Assembly: GCA_004297645.1 (NCBI GenBank)
Contig: SCUG01000462.1
Coordinates: 1-32,653, forward strand
Direction of reading: 5' to 3'
Origin: Saprospiraceae bacterium
GTDB lineage: Bacteria > Bacteroidota > Bacteroidia > Chitinophagales > Saprospiraceae
DNA length: 32,653 bases
The translations under genes were made by a program, and so were the position numbers. The notes beneath the pieces were generated by a model. The model did no database searches. It was not told the DNA's origin and worked only from the letters and a program-made list of their open reading frames with translations. Below, one piece after another: positions 1 through 32,653 of the stretch. Within the stretch, counting starts at the first letter, position 1; every line of letters starts with the position of its first letter.

Positions 1-477
1 TCAAAGCGCCGCCAAATCCAGTTGGATAACATCGAAAAACTGCCCATCCAAATGGTGGAAATCGTGGTCGGTGGTGAGCAAAGTCAAGCCAAGCACGGAG
101 GCAGTGGCAGCAATCCAGAGAGCCTGCCCCGAATTTTCGGGGTCGTTCTTTCCCATGTTTCGGGCGCTTGTTCCGAGTGGCCGCCCTGGCAGGCGACCCT
201 GGCTGAAAGCATCAATTTCGGCGTATCGCTGGATGATGGTTTCCACGTGAATGTCAGTAATGGGAAATTTTTGAACGAATTGAAACAGCCTTGAAATTCT
301 GGCGACGCCCCATTGGCTTTGAATGGCGATGGAGCGAATTTCACCGGCGGTCACGACGGACAACACGGAAGTGTTCGGAGCGGCGAGCGGGGCGTGAAGC
401 GCATCAATTTGGGCAGCCAGCCGCTGGTTTTCCCTGAGATAAAGGAGGAGGATGTTGGTGTCGAGGAGGAAATTCAT
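1..477 (-). CDS. PIN-domain (VapC-like) toxin ribonuclease
   Basis: 158-aa ORF. It has 'LLDTNILL' at the N-terminus, 'AGEIRS', 'KND...LWIAATA' and 'LLTTDHDF', which match the four acidic positions of PIN domains. Its ATG (475-477) overlaps a TGA (474-476) that closes the upstream antitoxin-like frame (ATGA coupling). Confidence 0.85.
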   Translation of the reverse strand: MNFLLDTNILLLYLRENQRLAAQIDALHAPLAAPNTSVLSVVTAGEIRSIAIQSQWGVARISRLFQFVQKFPITDIHVETIIQRYAEIDAFSQGRLPGRPLGTSARNMGKNDPENSGQALWIAATASVLGLTLLTTDHDFHHLDGQFFDVIQLDLAAL

Positions 478-826
478 GCGCTGAGCATCGCCAAAAGTTC
501 TTCAATGGGTTCCTGCACGTTGATTTCTGCAATCAACTTGTCCAATTCTTGCCGGTCAAAACCTTTGAAGTTTTGTTCCGTCAGAATTCTTCAAGCGTCA
601 GGTTCTTGCGCAACGGCCTCATGGCATCGGCAAAAATGGCAATTTCATTGGGCTGTGCAACTGGCTCGACAGGTTTGTTGATACCTTTGGAGGAGGGTTG
701 GCCGTTCCGGGCAGTTTTGCGGGCGGGCTTTTTTTCAGCCGAAATGACTTGCAAGACCTGGAGTCGCTCCAAACTGCGTAGCAGCGGCAGTGCTTCTTCC
801 CTCAATAATTTTACGGTGATGGTCAT
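474..826 (-). pseudogene. Putative antitoxin of the PIN toxin, reading frame broken near 581-590
   Basis: The ORF from ATG 826 stops at TGA 581-583 (...RKNLTLEEF*). A second frame is open from 590 and reads RILTEQNFKGFDRQELDKLIAEINVQEPIEELLAMLSA*, ending at TGA 474-476, which overlaps the toxin start. Joining the two pieces gives one antitoxin of about 117 aa. Confidence 0.55.
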
Positions 827-833
827 TGCTTCT

Positions 834-970
834 AAATTTTCTCAAAAGTACGGGAATTTCGTTGCAGTCGTTTCACAAAATCAACCTGAGGCCGGTGCAA
901 AGCCACCTGGTGCTTCCGCCACCGCATTTTGCAGGCGTATTTTGCCAGTCATTTGGAAGGAAGAAGAAAC
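834..970. repeat. Inter-module repeat, copy R1
   Basis: The core ggtgcttccgccaccgcattttgcaggcgtattttgcc (909-946) matches the R2 core at 35 of 38 positions, counted by eye. The left arm (834-908) also aligns with R2 (aaatttYctcaaaaRtac..gaatttcgtt..acctga). The right arm ggaaggaagaagaaac resembles ggtaggagaaagatgaaac in R2. Confidence 0.8.
843..850 (-). promoter_or_regulatory. Bacteroidota-type -7 box (TACTTTTG) inside R1, facing the antitoxin/PIN operon
   Basis: The reverse complement of caaaagta is TACTTTTG, which fits the TAnnTTTG consensus. It lies 17 nt upstream of ATG 826. Confidence 0.4.
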
Positions 971-1046
971 CGGAAGGCATACGAATTAATCCCAAATCAT
1001 GGCAGCAGACTCCCTTTTCGGTGCAAGGTTCATGGGTGATTATCCG

Positions 1047-1607
1047 TCAAGAAGGTAAAACCAGCATCGCTCCCGTCCAATTACCGGACTCCGGGTCGGG
1101 GTCTTCAAAAAACATGGCTGGCGGCTGATGGGCGAGTGCTTTGGCGATTTTTCTAACCCAAAGCGGGGCAGGGGATTCAGGTTCGGGGATGAAATCGAAT
1201 ACAATATCGGCGTGCATGGGCAGCCCTGCGTCAGCGGAAAAAACGGGGGCATCCGTTCTGAGTTGCCCCTTGTCGTCCAAAGGCGTAAAGGCAACCCGGA
1301 CTTTTGGCAACTCCTCGCCTAAGCTCTGGTCGGCTACTTTGGAGGGAATATCTTCGACATCTCCTGCTTTGATTAATGCCATGCCACAGTAGGCATGAAA
1401 CCCTACGACTAAAGATTTGAAGTGCTTCTTGCAAAAACCGGCGCCGGCGTAAAGAAGACGGAGCACGGAAACGTCATTTCTGCCGGGTGGCGGCTTGAAG
1501 GCATTCTCTTTCAATTGCCCGGCAGATTTCGAGTACATCAAAGGGTGTACGATGCCCCTGGCGAGCACTTCCTGAAAGGTGATAATGGGGGAAACCTCGA
1601 TATTCAT
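1047..1607 (-). CDS. Hypothetical protein, 186 aa (candidate toxin/effector of an unknown family)
   Basis: Long ORF with ordinary amino-acid composition. Its ATG (1605-1607) overlaps the TGA (1604-1606) of the upstream gene by 4 bp. I recognise no family motif. Confidence 0.7.
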   Translation of the reverse strand: MNIEVSPIITFQEVLARGIVHPLMYSKSAGQLKENAFKPPPGRNDVSVLRLLYAGAGFCKKHFKSLVVGFHAYCGMALIKAGDVEDIPSKVADQSLGEELPKVRVAFTPLDDKGQLRTDAPVFSADAGLPMHADIVFDFIPEPESPAPLWVRKIAKALAHQPPAMFFEDPDPESGNWTGAMLVLPS

Positions 1608-2116
1608 TGAGTAGGTGACAAATGGGCGAACAAGTGTTGCAAGGCTTCGAGCAAGTCAGCAGGAAAATCCTTTCCGGCGAGGTCGAGATGCTCATTTTCC
1701 ATTGTTTTCCCGGATGGCAATTGCGCAAAAAAATTAGCCTTGCTTTTGCCGATTTCGACGGTAACGAAGTGACTGTCTCCATGTTCCCAGTCTATCGTAA
1801 CCGTGCTATAAGGGGTGGGGGTTATGTTTTCCGGTTCTAAATGTTCGAGGAAGGATTCGGGCAATAGTCTCAGGAAGTTAAGGCAGGCATCCGCTACTTC
1901 CGGGCTGACAGGAATGGCGCCGTACCCGTCCCAATTGTTTTTTAGGCGAGTGAAGGACTGGATTTTCGTCCGGACGGCGCTCCAACGGTCTTTTCTTTTG
2001 AAAGCCTTTTTTTCCGGGCTGTTGCGATGCAGGAACTCATAGACTTTGGGGAGCCATTTCTCGTCCAATTGGTCAATGAGCCGGTGCAATTCTTCCCGTT
2101 GATAAGATATAGTCAT
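1604..2116 (-). CDS. Hypothetical protein, 170 aa (antitoxin-like N-terminal helix plus an unknown C-terminal domain)
   Basis: The N-terminus REELHRLIDQLDEKWLPKVYEFLH resembles the 'L..LI..LPE..L..V..F' helix of DUF2281-type antitoxins. The C-terminal 'NNWDGYGAIPVSPEVADACLNFLRLLP' domain is uncharacterised. The gene is translationally coupled to 1047-1607. Confidence 0.7.
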   Translation of the reverse strand: MTISYQREELHRLIDQLDEKWLPKVYEFLHRNSPEKKAFKRKDRWSAVRTKIQSFTRLKNNWDGYGAIPVSPEVADACLNFLRLLPESFLEHLEPENITPTPYSTVTIDWEHGDSHFVTVEIGKSKANFFAQLPSGKTMENEHLDLAGKDFPADLLEALQHLFAHLSPTQ

Positions 2117-2184
2117 CGTTCATTCAAGTTTTGAAAACAGCGCTTAAAGATAGCGCCTTCGATTAGTGAATGGTCTTCGCTCAA

Positions 2185-2324
2185 AAATTTCCTCAAAAAT
2201 ACATGAATTTCGTTTCCATTGTTTTTCAGATTTTACCTGAAATGAAACGGGGTATCGTGGCGCTTCCGGCACCGCATCTTGCAGGCGTATTTTGCCGGGC
2301 GGTGGGTAGGAGAAAGATGAAACA
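2185..2324. repeat. Inter-module repeat, copy R2
   Basis: Core ggcgcttccggcaccgcatcttgcaggcgtattttgcc (2259-2296). Both the left and right arms align with R1. Confidence 0.8.
2194..2201 (-). promoter_or_regulatory. -7 box (TATTTTTG) inside R2, facing the 2116-1047 gene pair
   Basis: The reverse complement of caaaaata is TATTTTTG, which fits TAnnTTTG. It occupies the same position in the repeat as the box in R1, 78 nt upstream of ATG 2116. Confidence 0.4.
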
Positions 2325-2349
2325 GCCTCCTCCATTTTCACCTTTTCCA

Positions 2350-2357
2350 TACCTTTG
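2350..2357 (+). promoter_or_regulatory. -7 box (TACCTTTG) upstream of the 4-Cys gene
   Basis: Exact TAnnTTTG match 15 nt upstream of ATG 2372, just to the right of R2. Confidence 0.35.
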
Positions 2358-2371
2358 GAATCAAAAATTCT

Positions 2372-3130
2372 ATGGAAGAAAACGAACACTTCATCGAGGG
2401 CATCTACAACTGGTGCGACCGCTGGTGCGAGCGCTGCAAATACACTGACCGATGCTATAGTTTTCAAATGGACGTGGAAGACGGCTTCGACCCGCTGAAC
2501 CGGGACCTCTCCGGCGAAGAGGTCTGGGCGCACGTCGGCAAGCGCTTTGCCCAGGCGCTCGAAATGCTTCGCAAACACGCCGCCGAACAGGGCATTGACC
2601 TCGACAACCTGCCCGATGTGGAAGAAGAACCGCCCAGCGAAAGGGCTGCCCGGCTGGAGGCGCTCTGCGAAGAAATCCACGAAGAATACATCGAACGCAG
2701 CCACTCGTTTTTCGAAGAAAACAAAACCTATTTTGAGGACAAAGGCCACGAAACCATCAGTTGGGTGCAGATGGGATTGTCTGGCGAAGAGGAGGTGCTG
2801 GCAAAATGGGAAGAGGTGAACGACCAGGCCGAAGTCATTCAGTGGTACACTTATTTTGTCGGGGTGAAAATACGCCGGGCTATAAACGGCCTCGACGACA
2901 TGCACGAAGACCACTGGGGCAGCCCTGAACAAAGCGACGCCAACCGCACGGCCCGCGTCGTCATGCTGGCCATCGAACGGAGCATGGCCGGCTGGCAGGT
3001 GATGCTGCATGCTTTTCCAGAAAAGGAGGACGGCATCATCCAACCCCTGGCACTGCTGGCCAGGTTTCGCCGGATGGTAGTGACGACCTTCCCACGCTGG
3101 GCTGAGGCGGGGCCAGACGTGGTGTGGTAA
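2372..3130 (+). CDS. Hypothetical acidic helical protein with an N-terminal 4-Cys cluster (C-x3-C-x2-C-x5-C)
   Basis: 252-aa ORF with 'NWCDRWCERCKYTDRC' at residues 13-28. The rest is Glu/Asp-rich. The overlapping 299-aa minus-strand ORF has antisense-shadow composition. Confidence 0.75.
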   Translation: MEENEHFIEGIYNWCDRWCERCKYTDRCYSFQMDVEDGFDPLNRDLSGEEVWAHVGKRFAQALEMLRKHAAEQGIDLDNLPDVEEEPPSERAARLEALCEEIHEEYIERSHSFFEENKTYFEDKGHETISWVQMGLSGEEEVLAKWEEVNDQAEVIQWYTYFVGVKIRRAINGLDDMHEDHWGSPEQSDANRTARVVMLAIERSMAGWQVMLHAFPEKEDGIIQPLALLARFRRMVVTTFPRWAEAGPDVVW

Positions 3131-3170
3131 GGCGTTCTACGCCGGGGGTGCTGCCCCTGCGCCTCATCCA

Positions 3171-3292
3171 TTTCCTCCACGAAACGCCCGCCCGCCACCG
3201 CCCCGAAACGGACGGTGCGACCTGGCGGTTTCGGCATCGGATATTGCAGGAGCATTTTGCGGGGCAGTGGAAAGAGAATGAAGCAATAAACC
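3171..3292. repeat. Inter-module repeat, copy R3 (more diverged)
   Basis: The core ggcggtttcggcatcggatattgcaggagcattttgcgg (3224-3262) matches the R2 core at about 32 of 40 positions by eye. The right arm gtggaaagagaatgaagcaataaacc resembles R2 ggtgggtaggagaaagatgaaacagcc. The left arm contains ccgccaccgcccc (3192-3204) and gaaacgg. Confidence 0.65.
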
Positions 3293-3294
3293 AG

Positions 3295-3302
3295 TAGCTT
3301 TG
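3295..3302 (+). promoter_or_regulatory. -7 box (TAGCTTTG) upstream of the antitoxin gene
   Basis: Exact TAnnTTTG match 27 nt upstream of the TTG start at 3329. Confidence 0.35.
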
Positions 3303-3328
3303 TAAATAATCCATCAACCATAACCGCT

Positions 3329-3541
3329 TTGGCACTGAAAGAAGAAGTCCGCAGACTAAGCGCCGTTGAGCGCATCCTTTTCGTGCAGTACATCCTCGAC
3401 ACGCTGCGGGAGGATGCGGGCGAGTTCGAGTTGAGCGAAGAATGGAAGCAGGAACTCGACCGCCGCACCACCTCCTACCTCGATGGCACTGCAAAAACCT
3501 ATGCTTGGCAGGAAGTCCGGGCAAAAGTGCAGCAGCAATGA
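3329..3541 (+). CDS. Addiction-module antitoxin (the small 'putative addiction module component' type that pairs with ParE/RelE)
   Basis: 70 aa. 'LSAVERILFVQYILDTL...ELSEEWKQELDRR' fits the small helical antitoxin pattern. TTG is the only start available, because the frame opens at 3290. The stop overlaps the next ATG (ATGA at 3538-3541). Confidence 0.7.
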   Translation: MALKEEVRRLSAVERILFVQYILDTLREDAGEFELSEEWKQELDRRTTSYLDGTAKTYAWQEVRAKVQQQ

Positions 3542-3711
3542 ACCACACGCTCGTTTTCCACCAAGAAGCGCTGGAGAAAATCCAGGATGCTCACGACTGG
3601 TACGAACTGCAAAGGAAAGGGCTTGGCTTGGAGTTCATGGACGCCATTGGCAAAGTGGTACAGCGCATTTTGTCAAATCCGAACGATAAGACCGACCGCC
3701 ACCTCCCCTAA
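3538..3711 (+). pseudogene. ParE/RelE-family toxin truncated after about 57 aa
   Basis: MNHTLVFHQEALEKIQDAHDWYELQRKGLGLEFMDAIGKVVQRILSNP matches the N-terminal half of ParE-like toxins. The C-terminal beta-sheet/'FPY..Y...H..R' half is missing. The last codons (DRHLP*) lie in the ccgccacctcccc box of repeat copy R4. Confidence 0.6.
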
Positions 3712-3760
3712 ATAATTGGCGCTTCCGCCCACCTGCGCCATTGGAATATTTTCAGGCAGA
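3693..3760. repeat. Inter-module repeat, copy R4 (degenerate)
   Basis: ccgccacctcccc (3696-3708) matches the R3 left-arm box. ggcgcttccgcccacctgcgccattggaatattttcaggc (3718-3757) aligns with the R2 core if gaps are allowed. Confidence 0.5.
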
Positions 3761-3784
3761 AGTTGCAAAAAGTTTTCCCCACTC

Positions 3785-3792
3785 TATATTTG
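3785..3792 (+). promoter_or_regulatory. -7 box (TATATTTG) upstream of the ATP-grasp gene
   Basis: Exact TAnnTTTG match 29 nt upstream of ATG 3821. Confidence 0.35.
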
Positions 3793-3820
3793 CCCCCCGA
3801 TTCTAATATTCAACCTTAAA

Positions 3821-5110
3821 ATGGAAAAAACCACGCGCAAACGGCGCTTTCTTTTTGTCTCCCGATGGGGTGACTTGCTCGACATAGTGAATGCAGTGCA
3901 GGAAGAAGGCAACGATGTAAAAATGTTCATCGAATACAAGCCCTGCTTAGAAGTCGGCGACGGCTTCGTCCCCAAAGTTAGCGAATGGCAAAGCCACATC
4001 GCCTGGGCCGACATCGTTGTGTTCGACTACACGGGCTACGGGAAAATAGCCGAAGAATTGCGGGCCACCGGCAAGCCTGTCTTCGGGGGCAGCGAGTACA
4101 CCGACAAGCTGGAGATAGACCGCAGTTTTGGGCAAGATGAACTGAAAAGGCACAAAATCAACATCCTGAAATACAAGGAATTTCAGACCTTCAGCGAAGC
4201 CATCGCCTATGTGGAAGCACACCCGAACTCCTACGTGCTCAAACCCAGCGGCGAGACGCAAGATTTTAAACAGCTCCTGTTTGTGGGCAAGGAAGACGAT
4301 GGTAGTGACATCGTACGGATGCTAAAGGCTTATGAAAAAAGCTGGGGCAACATGGGTGCCTTTCAACTGCAACGCCGGGTGAGGGGCGTGGAAGTAAGTG
4401 TATCTGCCTATTTCAACGGCAAGGAGTTCATCAAACCCGTCAACATAACTTTCGAGCACAAAAAACTTTTCCCCAAAGAACTCGGCGTCTCCACCGGAGA
4501 AATGGGCACCAGTATGTTTTGGACGGACGACAACCCCATCTTCGACGCCACCCTTGGCCGCATGGAAAAAACCCTCGCCAAAGATGGCTTCACCGGCCAC
4601 ATAGACATCAACTGCATCGTGAATGGAAAGGGCATTTATCCCTTGGAATTTACCTCTCGCTTTGGCTATCCGCAAGTGTACATTCAGCGGGAAGGCATCA
4701 GTGAACCTTTCGGCGACATGCTGTTCAAGCTGGCCACCGGCCAATCGTTCAAGCTAAAAACCAAACCCGGCTTCCAGGTCGGGGTTTACATGGTCGTGCC
4801 GCCTTTCCCTTACAACGACGACAAAACCTTCGAGCTTTTTTCCAAAGATGCCGTCGTCGTTTTCAAAGACAAAAGCATGAAGGGTATCCATCCGGTCCAC
4901 CTCCAGCAGGTAAACGGCGAATGGCTTATCACCGGCGACGCGGGCATGCCTATTCTCGTCGTGGGCACGGGTATCACCATGAAGGAGGCTCAACACCTGG
5001 CTTACAACCGCATCTCCAACGTCTTTATAAACAATTCCTACTACCGCACCGACATCGGCGACCGATGGACGGAGGATTCGGACAGGTTGTGGGCCTGGAA
5101 GTTCCTGTAA
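3821..5110 (+). CDS. ATP-grasp enzyme, PurD-like (paralog of phosphoribosylamine-glycine ligase)
   Basis: The ORF opens at 3716, but the sensible start is MEKTTRKRRFLFV at 3821. ATP-grasp-like core (YVLKPSGE..., GVEVSVSAYFNG, EMGTSMFW) and a PurD C-domain-like end (AYNRISNVFINNSYYRTDIGDRW). It lacks the housekeeping PurD 'GGREHA' N-terminal motif. Confidence 0.8.
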   Translation: MEKTTRKRRFLFVSRWGDLLDIVNAVQEEGNDVKMFIEYKPCLEVGDGFVPKVSEWQSHIAWADIVVFDYTGYGKIAEELRATGKPVFGGSEYTDKLEIDRSFGQDELKRHKINILKYKEFQTFSEAIAYVEAHPNSYVLKPSGETQDFKQLLFVGKEDDGSDIVRMLKAYEKSWGNMGAFQLQRRVRGVEVSVSAYFNGKEFIKPVNITFEHKKLFPKELGVSTGEMGTSMFWTDDNPIFDATLGRMEKTLAKDGFTGHIDINCIVNGKGIYPLEFTSRFGYPQVYIQREGISEPFGDMLFKLATGQSFKLKTKPGFQVGVYMVVPPFPYNDDKTFELFSKDAVVVFKDKSMKGIHPVHLQQVNGEWLITGDAGMPILVVGTGITMKEAQHLAYNRISNVFINNSYYRTDIGDRWTEDSDRLWAWKFL

Positions 5111-5118
5111 AAGGATGA

Positions 5119-5628
5119 ATGATGCCTTTACATTTCAAAGAAATCACCGAAGCCCCCGCCCCATTTTTCAACCTGCTGCCGCCCGACTGGCAGGAGGGCA
5201 TTGTGCCACAATGGCCCATTTATCAATCTACGGCTCGAATTTTCGCTTTGAAAAAAAAAGGAGAAATCCATTGCGGTGGCATCGTCTTTCCCACCGTTTC
5301 TCCCGACACCCAGGCCTACCGGGAAGAGGCACAGGGCTGGTTCGGCCGCGGGTTCCTTTACATCGGGTTCCTTTTTGTGCCGGAAAAGTACCGAGGCAAA
5401 CGCTATGGAACGACGTGGCTGGAGGCGTTGGAAAAGCAATTTCCCGGACAGGCTTTTTGGCTGGCCATTGACGAATACGGCTTGCACAACTTTTATGAAA
5501 AAAACGGCTTCCAACTGGTAAAGCAGGTAACGGGAGAATTTGGCCCCGAATGGATTTTGGAAAGAGCTGCAAATGCCGGCATCACTACCCCGCCTCCCGC
5601 ACCGCCCCCATTTTCAAAGAGACGCTGA
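5119..5628 (+). CDS. GNAT-family N-acetyltransferase with a Pro-rich C-terminal tail
   Basis: Acetyl-CoA motif A-like 'FLFVPEKYRGKRYGTTWLEALE' followed by 'YGLHNFYEKNGFQLV'. It starts 8 nt after the ATP-grasp stop. The tail TTPPPAPPPFSKRR is encoded by sequence resembling the repeat box. Confidence 0.8.
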   Translation: MMPLHFKEITEAPAPFFNLLPPDWQEGIVPQWPIYQSTARIFALKKKGEIHCGGIVFPTVSPDTQAYREEAQGWFGRGFLYIGFLFVPEKYRGKRYGTTWLEALEKQFPGQAFWLAIDEYGLHNFYEKNGFQLVKQVTGEFGPEWILERAANAGITTPPPAPPPFSKRR

Positions 5629-5692
5629 AACGACAAAAACGATAGCGCCGCCATCTTTGAATTGTGCGGGAATAACGCCATATTTGTCACCG
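5590..5692. repeat. Possible fifth, highly degenerate copy of the inter-module repeat (R5)
   Basis: ctcccgcaccgcccccattttcaaagagacgc (5594-5625) resembles cttccgccaccgc-attttgcaggcgtat of the R1 core. gaaacg and catatttgtcaccgg follow. This alignment is weak and made by eye only. Confidence 0.3.
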
Positions 5693-5836
5693 GACATCTA
5701 TTCACTTAGAAAGCTTTCCCATTTCTTCACCTTGTGCCTGTCAATGAACCGGAGTTCGGTTTTCGACCCATTCAACAAGTGTCCCTGACCTGCCCCCGGC
5801 ATTGCCGGTGCATAACCTTACAAAATTCCTCACGCC

Positions 5837-8800
5837 ATGAAAACCCGGTTTACCCTCGTTTTTCTTGCGCTGCTCCTGGCTGCTACTTCCCGTGCTCAAT
5901 TCAACTGGCAACACACCGGCGGCCCTAACGGCGGCTCGCTTTCCCGGATTTATTCCAACGACGAGTACGCCTTTTACCCCGATGAGTATTTTCTATACCG
6001 AACCTCCGACGGTATGCATTGGGAAAAATTGCCCGAAGCGGATATCTGGCCCCTTGCCGCCAACGGAAGCAACTTAGTCGCTCAGGCGTTGGCAAATCAT
6101 TACTCTAATTCGGTCCCTGCCAAACTTATTATCAGCCACGACAACGGCGAAACCTGGACGGAAGGCAACATGCCACCCGGCGGCGAGCATTTTTCAGAAA
6201 TAGTATGGTGCAGTCACGGGATTTACATTCCCAACGGTCAGGAAAATTTCATCTTTCGCTCAGTAGATGAGGGGCAGACGTGGGACTCTATTTTTCCTCC
6301 ATTTCAATATGGCTATGACATCTGGGAGTTTGATGACAGGCTTTATGGTAGTAGTTCATCCGGCATCTGGCGGACGGACACCAACGGGGAGAACTGGACA
6401 TCCCTCACCGTACCGCTCGGTGCGAGCGAATATATCAGGACTATTTTTGCAAACGGCCAGCACATCCTGGTAGGAACGGAATCCAATATATGGCAATCCC
6501 ACGACGATGGACAGACGTGGTCGAACCAGAGCAAGCCCTGGGCAGAAAACTTCACTGCTTTTCAATTGGCGGGCGATAAAGTTTATGTTGCAGGAGGCGG
6601 AGGCAACCTGGCCCGCTCGGATGATTTTGGCGTGACGTGGGAGGCTCTATTTCTTGACGATACCTACCAGTTCAACTTTTATTATACGGCCACAGCAGGT
6701 GGGCAAATCCTTGGTAGTACTTACAACAGAGGCGTTCTGCGGTGGGACGAGGCATCGGGCACGATAGTTCAAGCCAACGAGGGCTTGGGGTCCGGTGCTG
6801 TTTACATTCTTGCAGCAGGTGGCAACCGGGTTTGGGCGGGCGCTGGAAATGGCGTTTTCCAATTCGATTTGTCGCAGGAAAACTGGAGCGCCAATTCACC
6901 TTTGCCAATACCAGAGTACTTTTACGAATCCATCGCTACCCCTGACAACGGCCTTGTTTGCGCCGCCGAATGGCTCACGGACCACTTTTTCCTGTCCACT
7001 GATTTCGGGCAAAGCTGGGACACCATTTACCCATTCACCGAACCCTGGGAGTTCGGCTATATTTCCCGCCTAATGCTTAGTGATGAAGTAATTTTCTTTT
7101 GGAATGGAGAATCTGACTACTCCCTGTGGCGCTCGGATGATTTAGGACAAAGCTGGCAACAGGTTGATGTTCCTTTTTATATTAGCAGTATCATTAAGTT
7201 CAATGGCCTGCTGTTGGGAAATACCAATCAGCAAATCTATTCTTCCTCAGATTTAGGGATGACCTGGGAGGTATTTTCAGATTTTCCCTATGGCAATATA
7301 CTTTCGATGTTCACTTCGGGCGACCGCTTGATGGTAGGAGTTTCAGTGAACATCAATGGGCAGTATCACCAGCGGCTCTATACTTCGACCGATGGCATCA
7401 ACTGGGCCTACGCGCACGATGGGCTGCCGGAGGTGAGTTTGTACATTGACCCTGACTCCGAGTATTCTCTACCCGGTTTCTACTACTATCAGGAAGAATA
7501 TTTCCTTTACACCCCATCCACGGGTTTTTTCGTTTCACAAGATTCCTGCAAGACATGGTTGCCGCTCGAAAATCGGAACGGGTATGCCGTCACTATGACC
7601 GATGGCAAGTTTTACGCAGGCAGTTTCGGAGGCGGGGTTATCAGGGCAGACGTTCCGGTCAATGCCTATGGCGAACTTGCAGAGGGTACGGTGTACCTCG
7701 ACGAAAACAACAATGGCGCGTTCGATGCCGGAGAAAACCCCATTCCGAACGTGAGGGTCAGTGTGGAACAGCCGGGCACATGGTATCCCTTTTATTTTAC
7801 CACCACTGCTGAAGACGGTTCCTGGTCGCTCGGCATCACGCCAGGTTTGCAGGACACCCTGCGCCCTTTGATTCAGTCGCCCCATTTGGAAAGCATCAAT
7901 CCGCCCTGGTACCTGGCAAACATGGGTGGCACAGGCAAAGATTTTGGTATTCATCTAACGCCGGGCATCACTGACCTGTCGGTGGCGGGCGGCTACATTT
8001 TCAGACCCCGGCCGGGCTTCGATTTTCGGATTTATGCCCACTACGCCAACGACGGAACAACGGACCCTGGCGCAGTTGTATCGCTCAAGCTCGACCCGAA
8101 CCTGACCTACTTACAGGCCACTCCTTCGCCAACTGCTGTTTTTGGCGATAGCCTTGTTTGGGACGTTGGCCAACTGCCCGTGCTGAATGGTGGAAATATC
8201 TGGGTCGGGACCAACGTTCCTGCCACTACCCCGCTCGGAACTTTGGTAAAAAGCACCTGGCACATTTCTTCCATCGCTACCGATGCAACGCCCGATAACA
8301 ACCTCTTGGTTTTATGCGATACCGTCGTCGGTTCTTATGACCCCAATGAAAAAAGAGTGCAACCTGCCGAAGGCCTCCGGCCCTCCGAAATTGCCGAAGG
8401 CAAAGACCTGCTCTACACCATCCAGTTTCAAAACACCGGCAACTACCCGGCGGAGCGCGTGCGCATCACCGACATGATCGACACGGCGCTGTACCTGCCG
8501 TCGCTGCGCTTTGTGGCGGCAAGCCACCCCGTCACCTCGTTCCAGCTCAGGCCGGGCGGCCTGCTCGAAGTCGTTTTCGACGGTATTCAACTGCCCGACA
8601 GCACGAGCGATGAAGCTGGGAGCCACGGCTTCGTCACCTTCGCCATTCAGCGGAAAAAGGCATTCGACCCCACTTACCGGGTGCGCAACATGGCGGCCAT
8701 CTATTTTGATTTCAACGAACCGGTTTTTACCAACGAGGTGAGTTTCACCATCAACGATACGCCCGTTTCCGTGCATGAAACGCCGGGGAAAACGGCCACC

Positions 8801-9052
8801 CAATTGCTCATTTTCCCCAACCCGGCGGAGCAGGAGTTTACCATTTTTTCAAACGGCCAACTGCATGGCAGCGGCACGATGACCCTCCAAAACGAGACTG
8901 GCCAAATACTGCTGCAATTGGCGGTGGAAGATTTGGGCAGGCCGCTCACCGTGCAGGCGGCGCAACTGCCGGACGGCCTGTATTTCGTCCACCTTTCGGG
9001 CGACACGGAGCGGATGGCCGGTAAGGTGGTGATTCAGAGCAGCAGGAATTGA
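5837..9052 (+). CDS. Secreted BNR/Asp-box repeat protein with a T9SS C-terminal sorting domain
   Basis: Signal peptide MKTRFTLVFLALLLAATSRAQ. At least 8 Asp-boxes (SHDNGETW, SVDEGQTW, SHDDGQTW, SDDFGVTW, STDFGQSW, SDDLGQSW, SSDLGMTW...). A 'YDPNEK...YTIQFQNTGNYPAERVRITD' domain. The C-terminus 'LIFPNPAEQEFTI...GLYFVHLSGD...GKVVIQ' is typical of a T9SS CTD. Confidence 0.9.
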   Translation: MKTRFTLVFLALLLAATSRAQFNWQHTGGPNGGSLSRIYSNDEYAFYPDEYFLYRTSDGMHWEKLPEADIWPLAANGSNLVAQALANHYSNSVPAKLIISHDNGETWTEGNMPPGGEHFSEIVWCSHGIYIPNGQENFIFRSVDEGQTWDSIFPPFQYGYDIWEFDDRLYGSSSSGIWRTDTNGENWTSLTVPLGASEYIRTIFANGQHILVGTESNIWQSHDDGQTWSNQSKPWAENFTAFQLAGDKVYVAGGGGNLARSDDFGVTWEALFLDDTYQFNFYYTATAGGQILGSTYNRGVLRWDEASGTIVQANEGLGSGAVYILAAGGNRVWAGAGNGVFQFDLSQENWSANSPLPIPEYFYESIATPDNGLVCAAEWLTDHFFLSTDFGQSWDTIYPFTEPWEFGYISRLMLSDEVIFFWNGESDYSLWRSDDLGQSWQQVDVPFYISSIIKFNGLLLGNTNQQIYSSSDLGMTWEVFSDFPYGNILSMFTSGDRLMVGVSVNINGQYHQRLYTSTDGINWAYAHDGLPEVSLYIDPDSEYSLPGFYYYQEEYFLYTPSTGFFVSQDSCKTWLPLENRNGYAVTMTDGKFYAGSFGGGVIRADVPVNAYGELAEGTVYLDENNNGAFDAGENPIPNVRVSVEQPGTWYPFYFTTTAEDGSWSLGITPGLQDTLRPLIQSPHLESINPPWYLANMGGTGKDFGIHLTPGITDLSVAGGYIFRPRPGFDFRIYAHYANDGTTDPGAVVSLKLDPNLTYLQATPSPTAVFGDSLVWDVGQLPVLNGGNIWVGTNVPATTPLGTLVKSTWHISSIATDATPDNNLLVLCDTVVGSYDPNEKRVQPAEGLRPSEIAEGKDLLYTIQFQNTGNYPAERVRITDMIDTALYLPSLRFVAASHPVTSFQLRPGGLLEVVFDGIQLPDSTSDEAGSHGFVTFAIQRKKAFDPTYRVRNMAAIYFDFNEPVFTNEVSFTINDTPVSVHETPGKTATQLLIFPNPAEQEFTIFSNGQLHGSGTMTLQNETGQILLQLAVEDLGRPLTVQAAQLPDGLYFVHLSGDTERMAGKVVIQSSRN

Positions 9053-10177: not shown

Positions 10178-13100
10178 TTACATTTTCACGATTCGTTCTC
10201 TCCAGACCCAGCCATTCGGGCCGCCGTTTTTCAGCACCACGAGGTACACGCCCGAAGGCAGCCCGCCGAGGTTCAGCGGCCAGGGGGTTTCCGCTTCGGG
10301 AGGCCTGTGTTGTTGCAACACCTGTTTTCCATCGAACGACCAGAGTTCTGCCGTCCATTCGCCGGGTACCGGCAGGACGACGTACAACTGGCCGGACACA
10401 GGATTCGGGAAAATCTTCGGAGCAGAGAGTTCCTCTATTTCGCCGGCAGGCGTACCCGTGCAATCCACGTCAAACGCAACTGACAAACCCAAATCGAAAC
10501 AGGCATGGCCGGGAGAACTGTATTCGACGGCCCCCAGGTTGATGATGTAGCTGCCGGTTTGCGCGTAGGTATGCATGTACATACCGTCGGCATAAGGGCC
10601 AAAATCCAAATTGCCGTCGCCCCAGTCGATATAAGTAATGGAGTCGCAGGGTGGCAGGCCGCTGACGGTCAATATCGCCTTGCACAGCGAATCCACGATG
10701 GTGATGCTAACAGCGTTTTGCACGTTCTGGACGAACAGTTCATAATCGAGGCAACAACTGTCAACGGGGCATTCATTCTGGAACCAGGCCAGGTTGCAAA
10801 CGCAGGTGTCGCTGCCGCAAATGGTGCTCATGCTCAAAGAGTACCACCCTGCCAGGAACGGCGAGGGCAGCGTGATGAAAATGTTGCCCGGGGAAGTAAT
10901 GCCCGTGATGGAATTGTTAGGCCCGGTGAGTTGCCAATTTATAGGCGCCGCCAGACAGGAGTCTTCCAGACAACTGAAACTGCCGGTAATAATGGCACCA
11001 ACGATCGGTGGGCACTCGAAGTACATCGTGTCGCCGCAATCCACCGGAGTGGCGATGCCAGCATAGTTGAAGTTGAGATTCCAATCGCCGCAATGGCACT
11101 CGCAGTTTAAGGTGATGGTATCCGTCAAAAACTTTTCAAAGCAAATAAGACCGGTGTTCGGATCTCTCTCAATGGCTAAATAGGAAATTACGTAGGTACC
11201 GCTTTGCGAGTACGTGTGCATAATCATGGCACCAACGCCAAACGGCCCATAGTCCGTATTGCCATCTCCCCAATCGACATACTCGAAGGAGTCACATTCG
11301 GGCAAAGTACCAATATTGACGGCCGCCTTGCACAGCGAATCCACGATGGTGATGCTAACAGCGTTTTGCACGTTCTGGACGAAGGCCTCATAATCCTGGC
11401 AGCAGGCCACAGGGCAGAAAAAACAAAGGGTGTCGGTACAAACGAGGTCAGCGCCATCGAACGCATTAGGCCCCGAATACCAGCGGATTACCACACACTG
11501 AGGTACCTGGGAAGCATTGGTAATGTTGGAGAGGCAAAATTGGAGAAGACCGGGATAGTCACCTAAAGGTATAGAGGCATGGGGTGTAGTGTGGATAGTC
11601 AACAAGGTGCCGGCCGGCCCTCCATCTAATAGCAGACCACTGGGTGAAATAGAAGCATTGCTGAACCCAACACCTGGCGTGAGACTTTCCACTTGAATGA
11701 ATTGGATAGGTGCGGCGTGTATGCCGAAATTCATGCTGTAACAACAAGAATCAGAATCCAAAGAGTCCTTCGTCACCCAAAGCGAATCACAAGGGAAAGG
11801 GCAGTAAGTCACGCCGCCAGCCACGTTTAACCCGGTGACTGCTCCGGTGATATCGCTGTACTTTACCATGAGGCAGTTCTGTCCTGCCGCGAAATGCGAC
11901 TGCATGCCATCGGTGATAATCAGCGGAGGGCCGGCAAAACCTCCTGTTGCCGGGTAAGGAGGATAAGTAGGTACTGTGTAAATATTGTTGCTTCCCAGCC
12001 AGACTTCATCTATTACCTCATCAGCGCGGAGCTGTAGTGAAAGATTTGCGTCGGAGAAGCCTGGCGGCAGGTTGAAGCACACCTCATAGGTAAACTGTTG
12101 CGGTGTCCCTGGCAGTTGGCCGTTACACCCTAAGGGGCAGGCTGAAATCCATTGACTATTTGAGAATGGTAAGGCCCAAAGTGGATGGGCAGGTGCAATA
12201 ACATCAGCCGGGCGAGGCGTCGGTATCGTGGTTACAGGGTCGGCTATTACCCACCAGTCGAGGTCAGGCGCATTATCCACGTCCATACCTGGCGTATTTA
12301 TAACCGTCGAATTCTGGTTATCCCATCCCGTGTTGAGCACTATTGTAGCAGTGTCGCAACCGCAATTCACCGTCACCGGCGTGCACATTTGCTTGTACCA
12401 GCAAAAGTCCCCGCTTCCATTTTGCTCATAAACGGTTACGCAAATATTGTAGGTGCCGCTTTGTGCGTAAGTGTGCATCCACATCCCGTTGGCGGGCACG
12501 AGCACTTGCAGCACAGGTGTCCCGTCGCCAAAATCGGGCGGCGTACCAAACCAGTGGCAGGAGTCGAACTGCGGTGCGGTTACCGTCACTTTGCAAGAGT
12601 CGCCTATGGCGACCGTGAAGCCCTGGTTCACCAAGTTGCAAAAGGCATCGAAGTCGGCGCAGCAAGAGTCATGCGAACATTCAGCAGGGGCCAAACACAC
12701 GTCATCCACGGCAATGTAAACCCCTCCAAAAGCGCTATCCGTCCGGGTGATAAAAATCCGGTCAATACCGGCAGCGGGCAAGGCGGATGAATTAAAATTG
12801 AAGCTGATGGTTTGAAAATTTTCGTCGCAGGTACCCGGAATGGCGTAGGTGCCCAGCAGGATGGCTGGCGGCGAAAACAAATTCGGATTGGTTGGAGCCA
12901 ACGCGCCGGGCGTCCCGGTGCTTGCTGCACCCACCGGCACGCCAAAGACGCTGACGCCGGGCGTCCCAAAATAGAAGCCTAAACAGGCCAGCTTTAGGGA
13001 AAGCTGGTAACAACCTGAATTTTGAGCAATGGCCGCGCCCAATTGGTTCATAATCCCTTCACGCCATACCGGCTGGTTGGCTTGAAGCCTGCACCAAAAA

Positions 13101-14872: not shown

Positions 14873-14928
14873 GGTTTAGACGGTTTAGGAGGTTTAGGAG
14901 GTTTAGCCGGGTGCAACACCTGCTAAAC
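14873..14928. repeat. Tandem 9-mer (GGTTTAGNN x4) running into a hairpin; GGTTTAG family
   Basis: ggtttagac ggtttagga ggtttagga ggtttagcc (14873-14908). gtttagc (14901-07) pairs with gctaaac (14922-28), with an inner ggtg/cacc stem. It shares GGTTTAGGAGGT and GGTTTAGC...GCTAAAC with 29626-29688. Confidence 0.8.
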
Positions 14929-25182: not shown

Positions 25183-25289
25183 GTATCCCCTCAAAAAATG
25201 CTGGTATTTCGAGCGGCAGGGTTCAAAACCCTGCCGCTCGAAAAAACTGCGTAATTTTGGAAGACTCCCATTAATTTATGAGGGGATAC
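25183..25289. repeat. REP/MITE-like element, copy 1 (11-bp terminal inverted repeats plus an internal 14-17 bp hairpin)
   Basis: gtatcccctca (25183-93) pairs with tgaggggatac (25279-89). The internal hairpin is cgagcggcagggtt caa aaccctgccgctcg (25210-25240). The reverse complement matches 32550-32623 with 3 mismatches in 74 nt, counted by eye. Confidence 0.8.
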
Positions 25290-25420
25290 GATTTTTGTTT
25301 GATTTGGGGTTTCGGGGTTCGGGGCCTCACCCACCTTTCCATTCCCGCAGGGAGCCCGTCCTGGCCACGTTGGCTGCCAGCCCCCGGTTTGGGCGAGCCA
25401 AAGTAGGAAATTCCGGGGAA

Positions 25421-29625: not shown

Positions 29626-29688
29626 GAGGTTTAGGAGGTGTAAGAGGTTTAGCTCCAAACGTGCTAAACCTCTTACACCTCCTTAAAC
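29626..29688 (+). terminator. Long hairpin of the GGTTTAG family directly after the maeB stop
   Basis: ggaggtgtaagaggtttagc (29634-53) pairs perfectly with gctaaacctcttacacctcc (29663-82). The loop is tccaaacgt. The stem extends by gttta/taaac with one bulge. No U-tract follows, so a terminator function is presumed rather than shown. Confidence 0.5.
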
Positions 29689-29730
29689 TTCACACAACTC
29701 AACCGCCCGGCAACGAAAATCTTAGCTCCC

Positions 29731-32217: not shown

Positions 32218-32568
32218 ATGACCCTCAACCTGCGAACAATAGTACGAGTGCCACAGCGAATGCTGTGGGCCTTCGTCATGGAGAGCAAAGAGACGAAGGA
32301 GATGCTGCACATCTTTGCCCGGCAGGGCAAAAAGATACTGATAGTGCGGTCAGCGGAAGGGCCATCGGAGGAGGAAATGAAAAAGGCCGTCGAACAGCTC
32401 AAGGACATTCCACGGATTCTTCCTTTCTTCATTCTTATCGTGGTGCCCGCACCCGGAGTCACCGAAGGTTATGTTTTACTGGCCATAACACTGGAAAAAT
32501 GGTTGGGGCAAAAGGTGAACCTGCTGCCCAGCCATTTCAAAAATATTTTGTATTCCCTCATAAATTAA
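32218..32568 (+). CDS. Hypothetical small protein (116 aa) with a hydrophobic segment
   Basis: It is the only sizeable ORF after a 430-bp AT-rich region. 'PSEEEMKKAVEQLKDIPRILPFFILIVVPAPG' suggests a membrane anchor. The last 6 codons lie inside REP-like copy 2. No family recognised. Confidence 0.45.
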   Translation: MTLNLRTIVRVPQRMLWAFVMESKETKEMLHIFARQGKKILIVRSAEGPSEEEMKKAVEQLKDIPRILPFFILIVVPAPGVTEGYVLLAITLEKWLGQKVNLLPSHFKNILYSLIN

Positions 32569-32653
32569 TGGGAGTTTTCCAAAATTACGCAGTCTTTTCG
32601 AGCGGCAGGGTTTTGAACCCTGCGTTTCAGATACGAAAACGCAGGGTTCAAAA
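32550..32653. repeat. REP/MITE-like element, copy 2 (opposite orientation, runs off the window end)
   Basis: gtattccctcataaattaatgggagttttccaaaattacgcagtcttttcgagcggcagggttttgaaccctgc matches the reverse complement of 25216-25289. It then continues as overlapping hairpins gcagggtt/aaccctgc (32605-23), ctgcgttt/aaacgcag (32620-44) and gcagggtt again (32641-). Confidence 0.8.

Follow-up and report, generated by a model that had tools for sequence, protein, structure and literature searches.

The left part of contig SCUG01000462.1 of a Saprospiraceae bacterium (assembly GCA_004297645.1; the whole 32.6-kb stretch that was analyzed is called the window) carries a row of small accessory modules with copies of one repeat at the joints between them. 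Translation and comparison with related loci indicated that this repeat is the 3′ end of the gene of a membrane-associated NACHT (STAND) NTPase, kept as 5′-truncated copies of its last 30-125 nt. We think it probable that the region is a cassette array of displaced NACHT gene-end fragments, which would have been built and shuffled by homology-driven recombination.

Repeat copies in the window

The array part of the window (positions 1-6600) was read with its open reading frames (ORFs) and repeats listed. The 38-nt cores of R1 (909-946) and R2 (2259-2296) differ at three positions, which agrees with the 35 of 38 identities counted in an earlier note on this DNA. Their flanking arms align as that note had said (819-889 versus 2170-2240, 73% identity), and the homology of R3 was also borne out (65% identity to R1 across 60 nt). 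An 18-nt core, allowed up to three mismatches, had four matches in the window against 0.08 expected. Three of them were R1-R3, and the fourth (8900-8917, minus strand, three mismatches) lies outside the array. A DNA profile of 126 positions, made from at least 40 related copies and searched with nhmmer, matched R1 (898-959, E = 3e-17), R2 (2207-2309, E = 8e-21), R3 (3153-3275, E = 6e-32) and R4 (3668-3728, E = 3e-4). With the filters off, no further significant match appeared across the 32.6 kb (best other E = 0.15).

By profile and translation together, R1 occupies a module junction at 885-962 (profile positions 63-124), R2 spans 2235-2312 (33-124), and R3, the longest fragment in the window with about 50 codons, spans 3135-3283 (3-125), all on the plus strand. 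In the old reading frame R1 reads ..ATWCFRHRILQAYFAS.., R2 reads ..SWRFRHRILQAYFAGRW.. and R3 reads ..PGVLPLRLIHFLHETPARH.PETDGATWRFRHRILQEHFAGQWKE, the last also rendered as PGVLPLRLIHFLHETPARH.PETDGATWRFRHRILQEHFAGQWKENEAINQ followed by the stop. The relic ORF of R3 extends to the original stop codon at 3295-3297, and R3 is 87% identical to the consensus of the intact gene ends described below.

R4 (3691-3762, plus strand) is a decayed but real copy that has lost an internal piece. At 40, its score in local alignment was higher than those of all 65 control windows, and in a five-way alignment it had TGGCGCTTCCGCC(C)ACC and an upstream box in common with the other copies. In the old frame it reads TDRHLP, a stop, and then ..WRFRPPAPLEYF. 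A fuller copy of the R4 type stands before an ATP-grasp gene 98.6% identical in amino acids (aa) in L029, where the upstream module differs (L-numbers denote related loci and contigs, many of the loci being 8-kb stretches). The earlier note had also placed the start of R4 exactly where a ParE-like toxin is cut short. This was correct: residues 1-50 align to ParE proteins of 97-108 aa, and the last codons (TDRHLP and the stop) are repeat.

A fifth copy, R5, had been suspected at 5590-5692, and the proline-rich tail of the GNAT protein had been derived from it. We detected no copy there. R5 shared very little in the five-way alignment, the profile gave no match even at E ≤ 100 with the filters off, and the best local score was at chance level (22, versus 20.7 ± 2.3 for shuffles; equaled by 57 of 200 shuffles and by 32 of 65 control windows). 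The derivation of the GNAT tail from a repeat was not supported either.

Exact look-ups of three window proteins returned just two short Logan contigs, L001 and L002 (SRR8426588). L001, found with the 252-aa protein, is a 4.1-kb contig of the same organism that reaches 881 bp leftward beyond position 1. It starts within a repeat core identical to that of R3, ends within R3, and adds one module (a 77-aa gene and PIN_2) and two more repeat copies. The array is longer than the earlier note had reported, with six copies or more in this organism. One of the added copies, R0, sits between the convergent ends of the PIN_2 gene and the PIN gene of the window and reads MTARHLPETHGATRRFRHLLLQAHFAGR followed by a stop in the old frame. 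From left to right, the order is a fragment, the 77-aa gene with PIN_2, R0, an inverted PIN toxin with its antitoxin, R1, an inverted pair of 186 and 170 aa, R2, a 252-aa gene, R3, an antitoxin with a truncated ParE, R4, and an ATP-grasp gene with a GNAT gene.

L002 begins inside R3. The edges of the two Logan contigs (L001 1-40 and 4116-4142; L002 1-39) fall in one 30-nt stretch common to R3 and the leftmost copy. Because both contigs start or end inside the repeats, these break short-read assembly graphs, and caution is due with the module order in short-read metagenome-assembled genomes (MAGs) of this clade. No JGI metagenome matched a 32-nt pattern that is specific for the left junction.

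Origin of the repeat

One genome per GTDB species and a set of metagenomes were searched with a degenerate 27-nt core of the repeat, CAYCNNMTHTTGCAGGMGYATTTTGCS. The core was matched in 25 stretches from the GTDB species representatives, almost all of them Saprospiraceae/Lewinellaceae MAGs plus Flavilitoribacter nigricans, and in 12 stretches from metagenomes. Matches outside the family (Competibacteraceae, Desulfobacterales) were rejected, being other proteins that bear H-Q-L-L-Q-E-Y-F-A. True repeat copies were present in 31 loci, nearly all from Saprospiraceae or Lewinellaceae. They number 61, comprising nine ends of intact genes and 52 truncated fragments. Between two and six copies occur in 13 of the 31 loci, and the strand is the same within each of the 30 adjacent pairs.

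In nine loci the copy is the C-terminus of an open gene of 650-750 aa with transmembrane stretches. Pfam recognized NACHT in the four intact genes tested (E = 4e-8 to 3e-5) and an N-terminal EAD11 in two, and a protein search gave 114 homologues of the NACHT protein, many of them named NACHT. In register, the copies translate as ...ILQHWLLRWQLYRAGVLPLRLVHFLNEMTARHLLETDGATWRFRHRILQEYFAGQWKE and then stop, and the gene end codes for ...LPLRLVHFLNEMTARHLLETDGATWRFRHRILQEYFAGQWKE and a stop. Intact NACHT proteins have the motif WRFRHRILQEYFA at the C-terminus. Their C-terminal region bears an F-x-H-x-x-x-Q-E-[FY]-x-A motif, which we take to belong to the winged-helix part of the protein. The relic ORFs end 0-20 codons beyond the conserved piece.

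Variation among the 52 fragments was 0.10, 0.08 and 0.24 at codon positions 1, 2 and 3 (columns 59-126), and the nine intact gene ends gave similar values (0.07, 0.08 and 0.22). Because the variation is concentrated at third codon positions, most differences among the fragments date from the time when they were still the ends of working genes. NACHT homologues that are more distant (40-46% identity; L042-L044, L016) have no array and yet retain the C-terminal motif, which makes it unlikely that the intact genes acquired their ends from the repeat. The earlier note had taken the repeat for a possible new, free-standing recombination site. By its reading frame, it is instead the truncated 3′ coding end of a NACHT gene.

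In several fragments, a short palindromic insert, tcccgatagctatcggga, replaces the "DGATW" codons and shifts the old frame; it was seen in no intact gene. Such fragments lie in L019 (1562-1655, 2380-2487 and 3065-3192) and L007 (2275-2388), and similar ones in L013 (5692-5797) and L003 (7901-7992, in repeat orientation).

The same data bear on a simpler explanation, that the repeat is a dispersed element resembling a repetitive extragenic palindrome (REP) or a miniature inverted-repeat transposable element (MITE), or a mobile promoter spacer, with no relation to genes. The repeat is indeed short, intergenic and reiterated, and promoter-like boxes adjoin it. However, those boxes lie outside its conserved part and depend on the module, the repeat has neither terminal inverted repeats nor a palindrome, and in nine loci it is the coding sequence of an intact gene. 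Its copies are also restricted to arrays: the other 27 kb of the window have no significant copy, and the copies of the 31 loci are gene ends or array members, which speaks against a genome-wide REP. For practical purposes, this explanation can be regarded as refuted.

Assortment of modules around the fragments

The 150 nt on either side of every copy were compared and clustered. Among 47 inter-locus pairs with a common upstream flank, 39 had the left boundary of the fragment in common (within 8 positions). When the upstream flank was common, the downstream flank was also shared in just 2 of 43 pairs; for the 63 pairs with a common downstream flank, the upstream flank was also shared in just 2 of 55. 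Judged from these flanks, the upstream and downstream neighbors of a fragment assort independently. For example, the R1 junction type is also present in L019 and L031, and the downstream module is different in each. The 252-aa gene recurs in the arrays of L031/L045 (88% aa identity) and L041 (82%), preceded by a fragment in each array and followed by different sequence in each. A former fusion of this gene to R3 was considered and dropped, as the L031 and L041 genes share its stop codon and then continue into other sequence. The earlier note had proposed a cassette-like array with the repeats as junctions. That proposal was upheld: in the comparison of relatives that the note itself had suggested as a check, module content and order vary between related genomes and the repeats are kept.

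The left boundary of a fragment goes with the preceding module. Left ends span profile positions 3 to 97, and right ends fall at positions 122-126 in nearly all copies. The left boundary is at 3-4 after DUF433+DUF5615 (three genomes), at 12-16 after the PIN_2 with the 77-aa partner (two genomes), at 16-20 after the PIN_2 of the "VKIVVDTN" kind (three genomes) and at 63-66 after the inverted PIN and antitoxin (three genomes). Past ...CAGTGGAAGGAG, the sequence turns module-specific. Since the left boundary is typical of the preceding module and module-specific sequence starts past CAGTGGAAGGAG, the mobile unit is a module plus the fragment that follows, which is formally like an ORF plus attC.

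The point of exchange was approached through pairs that share one neighbor only. When only the upstream module was shared, identity was raised only in columns 34-59 (85% versus 75% background). When only the downstream module was shared, it was raised most clearly in columns 112-125 (84% versus 73%). Columns 85-111 stayed at background in both classes of pairs, and columns 60-84 nearly so, which implied that the exchange falls within the conserved core.

Core identity within arrays was 0.829, compared with 0.833 between genomes. It follows from this equality that units evidently travel between genomes with their own fragment and are not cut from the local gene. Simple sequential displacement in place, in which all fragments would come from the local head gene, was rejected as insufficient for the same reason and because identity to the head gene falls only weakly along the array of L012.

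Some substitutions are typical of fragments. A Glu to Ala change in QEYFA and a Tyr to His change are both common in fragments and present in none of the nine intact genes; in the organism of the window, the former occurs in R0-R2 and the latter in R0 and R3. These alleles are relevant to the idea that the arrays are decayed tandem paralogues, that is, several NACHT genes with downstream modules from which deletions left only the 3′ ends. The idea leaves unexplained both the occurrence of the fragment-only alleles across genomes and the occurrence of one module and fragment boundary beside differing neighbors. It would also need dozens of independent 2-kb deletions, each sparing the last 30 or more nt. 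The presence of more than one NACHT locus per genome and of long fragments of 57-79 codons, grouped under R3, L020 4059 and L041 12640, would suit it, but we consider it improbable.

Arrays in related genomes

An intact NACHT gene heads the array in L012 (five copies), L020, L003, L041 and L045. In L041, a 719-kb MAG contig, clpB, xisI and the NACHT gene are followed by five fragments, and the modules are an antitoxin with ParE, a sulfatase, an antitoxin with PIN_2, DUF6155 and the 252-aa gene. The closest relative of the window is L045, whose common modules are 90-94% identical to the window in nucleotides and which is 99.7% identical to L031. Its order is clpB (minus strand), xisH, xisI, an 81-aa gene, HNH, NACHT, a module of the 252-aa gene with a 270-aa gene (minus strand) and a 116-aa gene, a fragment, the inverted PIN and antitoxin, and a fragment of the R1 type. 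L031 extends this layout by an antitoxin with PIN and one more fragment. Compared with the window, the common modules are in changed order and in changed company. L019, a groundwater MAG, has the segment from R0 through the inverted PIN and antitoxin to R1 in common with the window, and its array stops there. In L019 and L031/L045, the inverted PIN module has 88-94% aa identity to that of the window, and the types of the fragments alongside also match.

Directly upstream of the head NACHT gene, xisI was found in four of the five heads examined. It lies at 4014-4355 in L014, 609-950 in L020 and 9621-9962 in L041. In L045 it comes with xisH, the 81-aa gene and an HNH nuclease gene, the group spanning 5685-7162. 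L012 is without xisI, and its NACHT protein has an EAD11 N-terminus instead. Other neighbors of the arrays are genes of conflict systems (STAND-TPR, AAA_15, SEFIR/TIR and PIF1).

In three loci, the place of the NACHT gene is held by another large gene that is followed by a long NACHT-end fragment. The replacing genes code for an AAA_16-TPR STAND protein (L023 361-3078), an AAA_15 ATPase (L011 839-3746) and a type IX secretion system (T9SS) protein (L035 235-3672). It seems from these three loci that the head gene can be replaced, with its last ~120 nt staying.

The size of the modules ranges from 0.1 to 4.6 kb (median about 0.7 kb). About 19 of 30 are toxin-antitoxin pairs (PIN/PIN_2, ParE, DUF433+DUF5615). 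Other cargo outside the window includes DUF6155, SWIM, SEC-C, a Thg1-like protein, a sulfatase and a T9SS protein. Islands that restore their target gene classically leave a direct repeat of its end behind each unit, so the units could be regarded as tandem remnants of integrase-bearing islands that targeted the NACHT 3′ end and duplicated it, as tRNA islands do. However, neither an integrase nor a remnant of one was found in the modules examined, the units are small, and the duplicated length ranges from 29 to >120 nt and is not constant. We consider such islands very improbable.

Tests for a site-specific system

The earlier note had found neither RYYYAAC/GTTRRRY cores nor an integrase in the window, and our searches agree. 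No RYYYAAC...GTTRRRY pair within 30-130 nt was present on either strand of 701-5800 (0.8 expected by chance). Single-strand DNA folds of R1-R3 were no better than shuffles on either strand (z from -1.04 to +0.96). R0 seemed to show a compensatory change in a candidate conserved hairpin, CCGAAAC/GTTTCGG, but this idea was abandoned because the folds were no better than shuffles and the segment is coding. The core showed no convincing dyad symmetry. Rfam gave nothing relevant in 1-7000 at E ≤ 10, nor in the whole window at the gathering score. Pfam searches covered the window, a scanned subset of the neighbor and module genes in the 8-kb loci, the 10 kb on either side of the L041 head gene, and the 12.5-kb contig L045, and no recombinase, transposase or integrase domain was found among them. 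Within the scope of these searches, attC features and nearby recombinases are absent.

These negatives weigh on an integron-like alternative. It supposes a dedicated site-specific recombinase, encoded elsewhere or unrecognizable, whose site would be the final 30-40 nt of the NACHT gene; units of promoter, genes and site would be inserted and excised at the gene end, and the enzyme might work with xisI, xisH and HNH. The absence, in the scope just given, of a tyrosine or serine recombinase or a transposase speaks against it, as does a core with neither convincing dyad symmetry nor a hairpin. Moreover, the fragments decay like pseudogenes, with codon-periodic variation and no pattern of conservation at the DNA level, and their left ends vary greatly. 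On the other side, there is one site per junction in strictly uniform orientation, neighbors assort independently, and the exchange point lies within the conserved core. The shortest fragments all keep the right-hand core (profile positions 89-125, 91-125 and 97-125), module ends are tidy, and xisI, sometimes with xisH and an HNH gene, adjoins the head in most of the arrays examined. We regard a dedicated enzyme as unlikely, and its standing is taken up again below.

Proposed mechanism

In Saprospiraceae and Lewinellaceae, an intact NACHT gene would head the array, next to clpB and often behind xisI. The working unit would consist of its own promoter, one or more genes and a NACHT-end fragment, with the fragments oriented as the head gene. 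The left end of the fragment would be fixed for each module, presumably by an illegitimate join that happened only once, and the conserved right part (...CACCGCATCTTGCAGGAGTATTTTGCGGGGCAGTGGAAGGAG) would be the common sequence at which units join, are lost and exchange. New units may enter by homology-facilitated recombination with the NACHT end as anchor, the older gene end then being displaced downstream together with its module. RecA-type recombination between fragments might afterward rearrange the units, both inside a genome and from one genome to another. The enrichment of toxin-antitoxin cargo may stem from its resistance to deletion between direct repeats. The identity of the repeat, the structure of the arrays and the independent assortment of neighbors were observed; how recombination proceeds, which way the arrays grow and that toxin-antitoxin pairs stabilize them is inferred.

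Sequential displacement through homology-facilitated illegitimate recombination has been proposed for type VI secretion system (T6SS) effector-immunity arrays and for rhs (PMC5361080). We favor homology-driven insertion because the geometry of the present arrays is that of the orphan arrays of rhs, contact-dependent inhibition (CDI) and T6SS loci, for which such recombination with subsequent ordinary homologous exchange has been proposed. The retention of toxin-antitoxin pairs is argued by analogy with the toxin-antitoxin cassettes of integrons (PMC13108822).

Several observations weigh against this mechanism. Core identity within an array is no higher than between genomes (0.829 and 0.833), so that horizontal exchange of units must be added to the displacement model. 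Some fragments have just 29-37 nt (L011 4303; L041 15804 and 17337), which is short for RecA-type recombination and nearer the size of a recombinase site. At several independent junctions the module ends a few bases past the last stop codon; this is tidier than random illegitimate joins predict. Also to be counted here is that xisI recurs, in some cases together with xisH and HNH, immediately upstream of the head gene. In addition, the sequence to the left of the first fragment of L001, including the array head of the organism of the window, was not recovered. The short fragments, the tidy module ends and the recurrence of xisI/xisH/HNH keep the dedicated-enzyme model alive as a minority option. 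Even so, the description is solid and recurs across many species, and homology-driven recombination is the explanation that we favor for it.

Modules and promoters in the window

A TAnnTTTG box lies 7-68 nt (mostly 14-40 nt) past 26 of 57 fragments, compared with 78 of 2268 background windows (3.4%). In the window, plus-strand boxes are at 2350, 3295 and 3785. By this motif, the plus-strand modules seem to carry a putative Bacteroidota-type -7 promoter of their own. The earlier note had allowed that the repeat itself is a promoter-bearing spacer. The left arms of R1 and R2 do carry TAnnTTTG boxes on the minus strand, but these are part of the inverted modules and not of the repeat.

The PIN-domain toxin gene (1-477, minus strand, 158 aa; PF01850, E = 8e-8) seems intact, and its antitoxin gene (478-826, minus strand) is frameshifted, with an ORF of 81 aa at 581-826. 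The antitoxin is intact with 117 aa in L019 and L031/L045, and the first 81 residues are 88-95% identical. The left arm of R1 (819-884, minus strand) is not derived from NACHT and consists of the promoter and 5′ region of this inverted antitoxin gene. Its -7 box, TACTTTTG, is at 843-850 on the minus strand, and the arm is conserved with the module in L019 and L031.

Next come two overlapping minus-strand genes (1047-2116) of 186 aa (1047-1607) and 170 aa (1604-2116). The pair had no Pfam match and no counterpart in the other sampled arrays. The 170-aa protein gave a weak PADLOC match to PDC-M32A (E = 2.5e-4), and a PADLOC scan of the unannotated module proteins and the NACHT proteins gave marginal P-loop matches only. 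The left arm of R2 (2170-2234, minus strand; -7 box TATTTTTG at 2194-2201, minus strand) is a copy of the promoter arm of the inverted antitoxin, with the 73% identity to 819-889 noted above. Even the antitoxin start has left a relic in it, ATGACCAT of the R1 arm (819-826) having become AAGACCAT (2170-2177). Because the R2 arm copies the R1 arm together with the first antitoxin codons, the 186/170-aa pair apparently took the place of the coding region of an earlier inverted PIN/antitoxin unit, of which the promoter was retained.

The module of the 252-aa protein with four Cys (2350-3130, plus strand) has its -7 box, TACCTTTG, at 2350-2357 and its gene at 2372-3130. The following module (3295-3711, plus strand) has the box TAGCTTTG at 3295-3302, an antitoxin gene at 3329-3541 (Unstab_antitox, PF09720, E = 6e-12) and the ParE gene at 3538-3711. 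The latter is cut after about 50 codons, and the first codons of R4 supply its end and its stop. A full-length ParE_toxin homologue (97 aa, PF05016) was found in L012, and the same module stands behind a fragment or the intact NACHT gene in L011, L012, L013, L019, L022, L036 and L041. The last unit (3785-5628, plus strand; box TATATTTG at 3785-3792) comprises the ATP-grasp gene (3821-5110; GARS_A/GARS_C) and the GNAT gene (5119-5628; Acetyltransf_1), and no fragment follows it downstream.

Beyond the array, the window is ordinary chromosome. It codes for T9SS cargo proteins, an M1 peptidase, RlmL, a histidine kinase, gntP and gntK (gluconate), 6-phosphogluconate dehydrogenase, malic enzyme, an enolase-superfamily protein and carbonic anhydrase.

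Other repeats in the window

A second, unrelated family is represented by an intergenic element of about 92 nt at 25216-25307 (plus strand) and 32532-32623 (minus strand). It has two hairpins, GCAGGGTT..AACCCTGC and CTCCC..GAGGG, and the inverted pair is 89% complementary and 7.2 kb apart. An exact 40-nt match to it lies at L029 1716-1755, in the array and just upstream of the R4-type fragment. It had no Rfam match, and it looks like a REP- or MITE-type element. An 81-nt direct repeat (10676-10756 and 11324-11404; 91% identity, 648 nt apart) within the minus-strand gene of a 1274-aa T9SS/PKD protein most likely reflects duplication of an internal domain. A 9-nt tandem unit of the GGTTTAGGA/GGTTTAGAC type is found at 14873-14916, and the same motif forms a near-perfect 27-nt hairpin at 29627-29689, past the gene of malic enzyme; this may represent either a terminator or a small family of repeats.

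Comparison with known systems and implications

When toxin-antitoxin and defense genes build up into variable islands, mobile elements or integrons are mostly given as the explanation. Our search of the full-text literature found no description of an array of the present type. Integrons and clusters of attC sites lacking integron-integrases (CALINs) resemble it in having ordered small units that assort independently, with one common sequence at the end of each unit and a single orientation. They are likewise rich in toxin-antitoxin pairs, GNAT genes and orphans, and their content and order vary among close relatives. However, the common sequence here is a gene remnant of 29 to >120 nt and not an attC, without R″, L″, L′ and R′ boxes and without a single-strand hairpin, and no IntI, attI or Pc was seen in the scanned scope. 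Integron cassettes are mostly promoterless and expressed from Pc, whereas the units here have promoter motifs of their own.

The rhs loci, the cdiA-CT/cdiI arrays of CDI and the T6SS orphan arrays of Vibrio (PMC2935791, PMC5361080) are similar in other respects. They have an intact head gene (here in the relatives), no recombinase, and downstream partial copies in one orientation with variable 5′ truncation and a constant 3′ limit, and homology-anchored insertion has been proposed as their mechanism. In those systems, a toxin tip is fused in frame to the conserved piece and accompanied by an immunity gene. Here, by contrast, the conserved piece closes the ORF; the variable units lie past the stop codon as distinct, unrelated operons; the array is headed by a gene for a NACHT NTPase and not for a polymorphic toxin; and the fragments are no closer to the local head gene than to foreign ones.

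Two further systems share single features with the arrays. In integrase-mediated islands at tRNA genes, such as those of the tycheposon type, a variable stretch of cargo is interrupted again and again by 3′ fragments of a single target gene. The arrays are punctuated likewise, but the target is protein-coding, the length of the repeat is inconstant, the units are far smaller and no integrase was seen. The minimal mobile elements of Neisseria are cassettes between conserved flanks, exchanged by transformation and homologous recombination. They too are small cargo exchanged by homology alone, without a mobility gene, but they have two different flanking core genes and one cassette per site, in contrast to one portable and reiterated repeat.

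The arrays represent a third pattern, in which copies of the conserved end of an immune-type NACHT gene serve as joints between small modules with their own promoters, and it is found in at least 13 arrays across species of Saprospiraceae and Lewinellaceae. The fragments also generate spurious small ORFs and chimeric gene ends, for example, the truncated ParE. If a dedicated enzyme were at work, the arrays would be a new cassette-capture system, a Bacteroidota functional analogue of the integron with coding sequence as its site. If the exchange is driven by homology, the displacement model of polymorphic toxin loci would extend to ordinary operons behind a defense gene, and the arrays would offer a sequence-defined case of short portable homologies building islands of defense and addiction genes.

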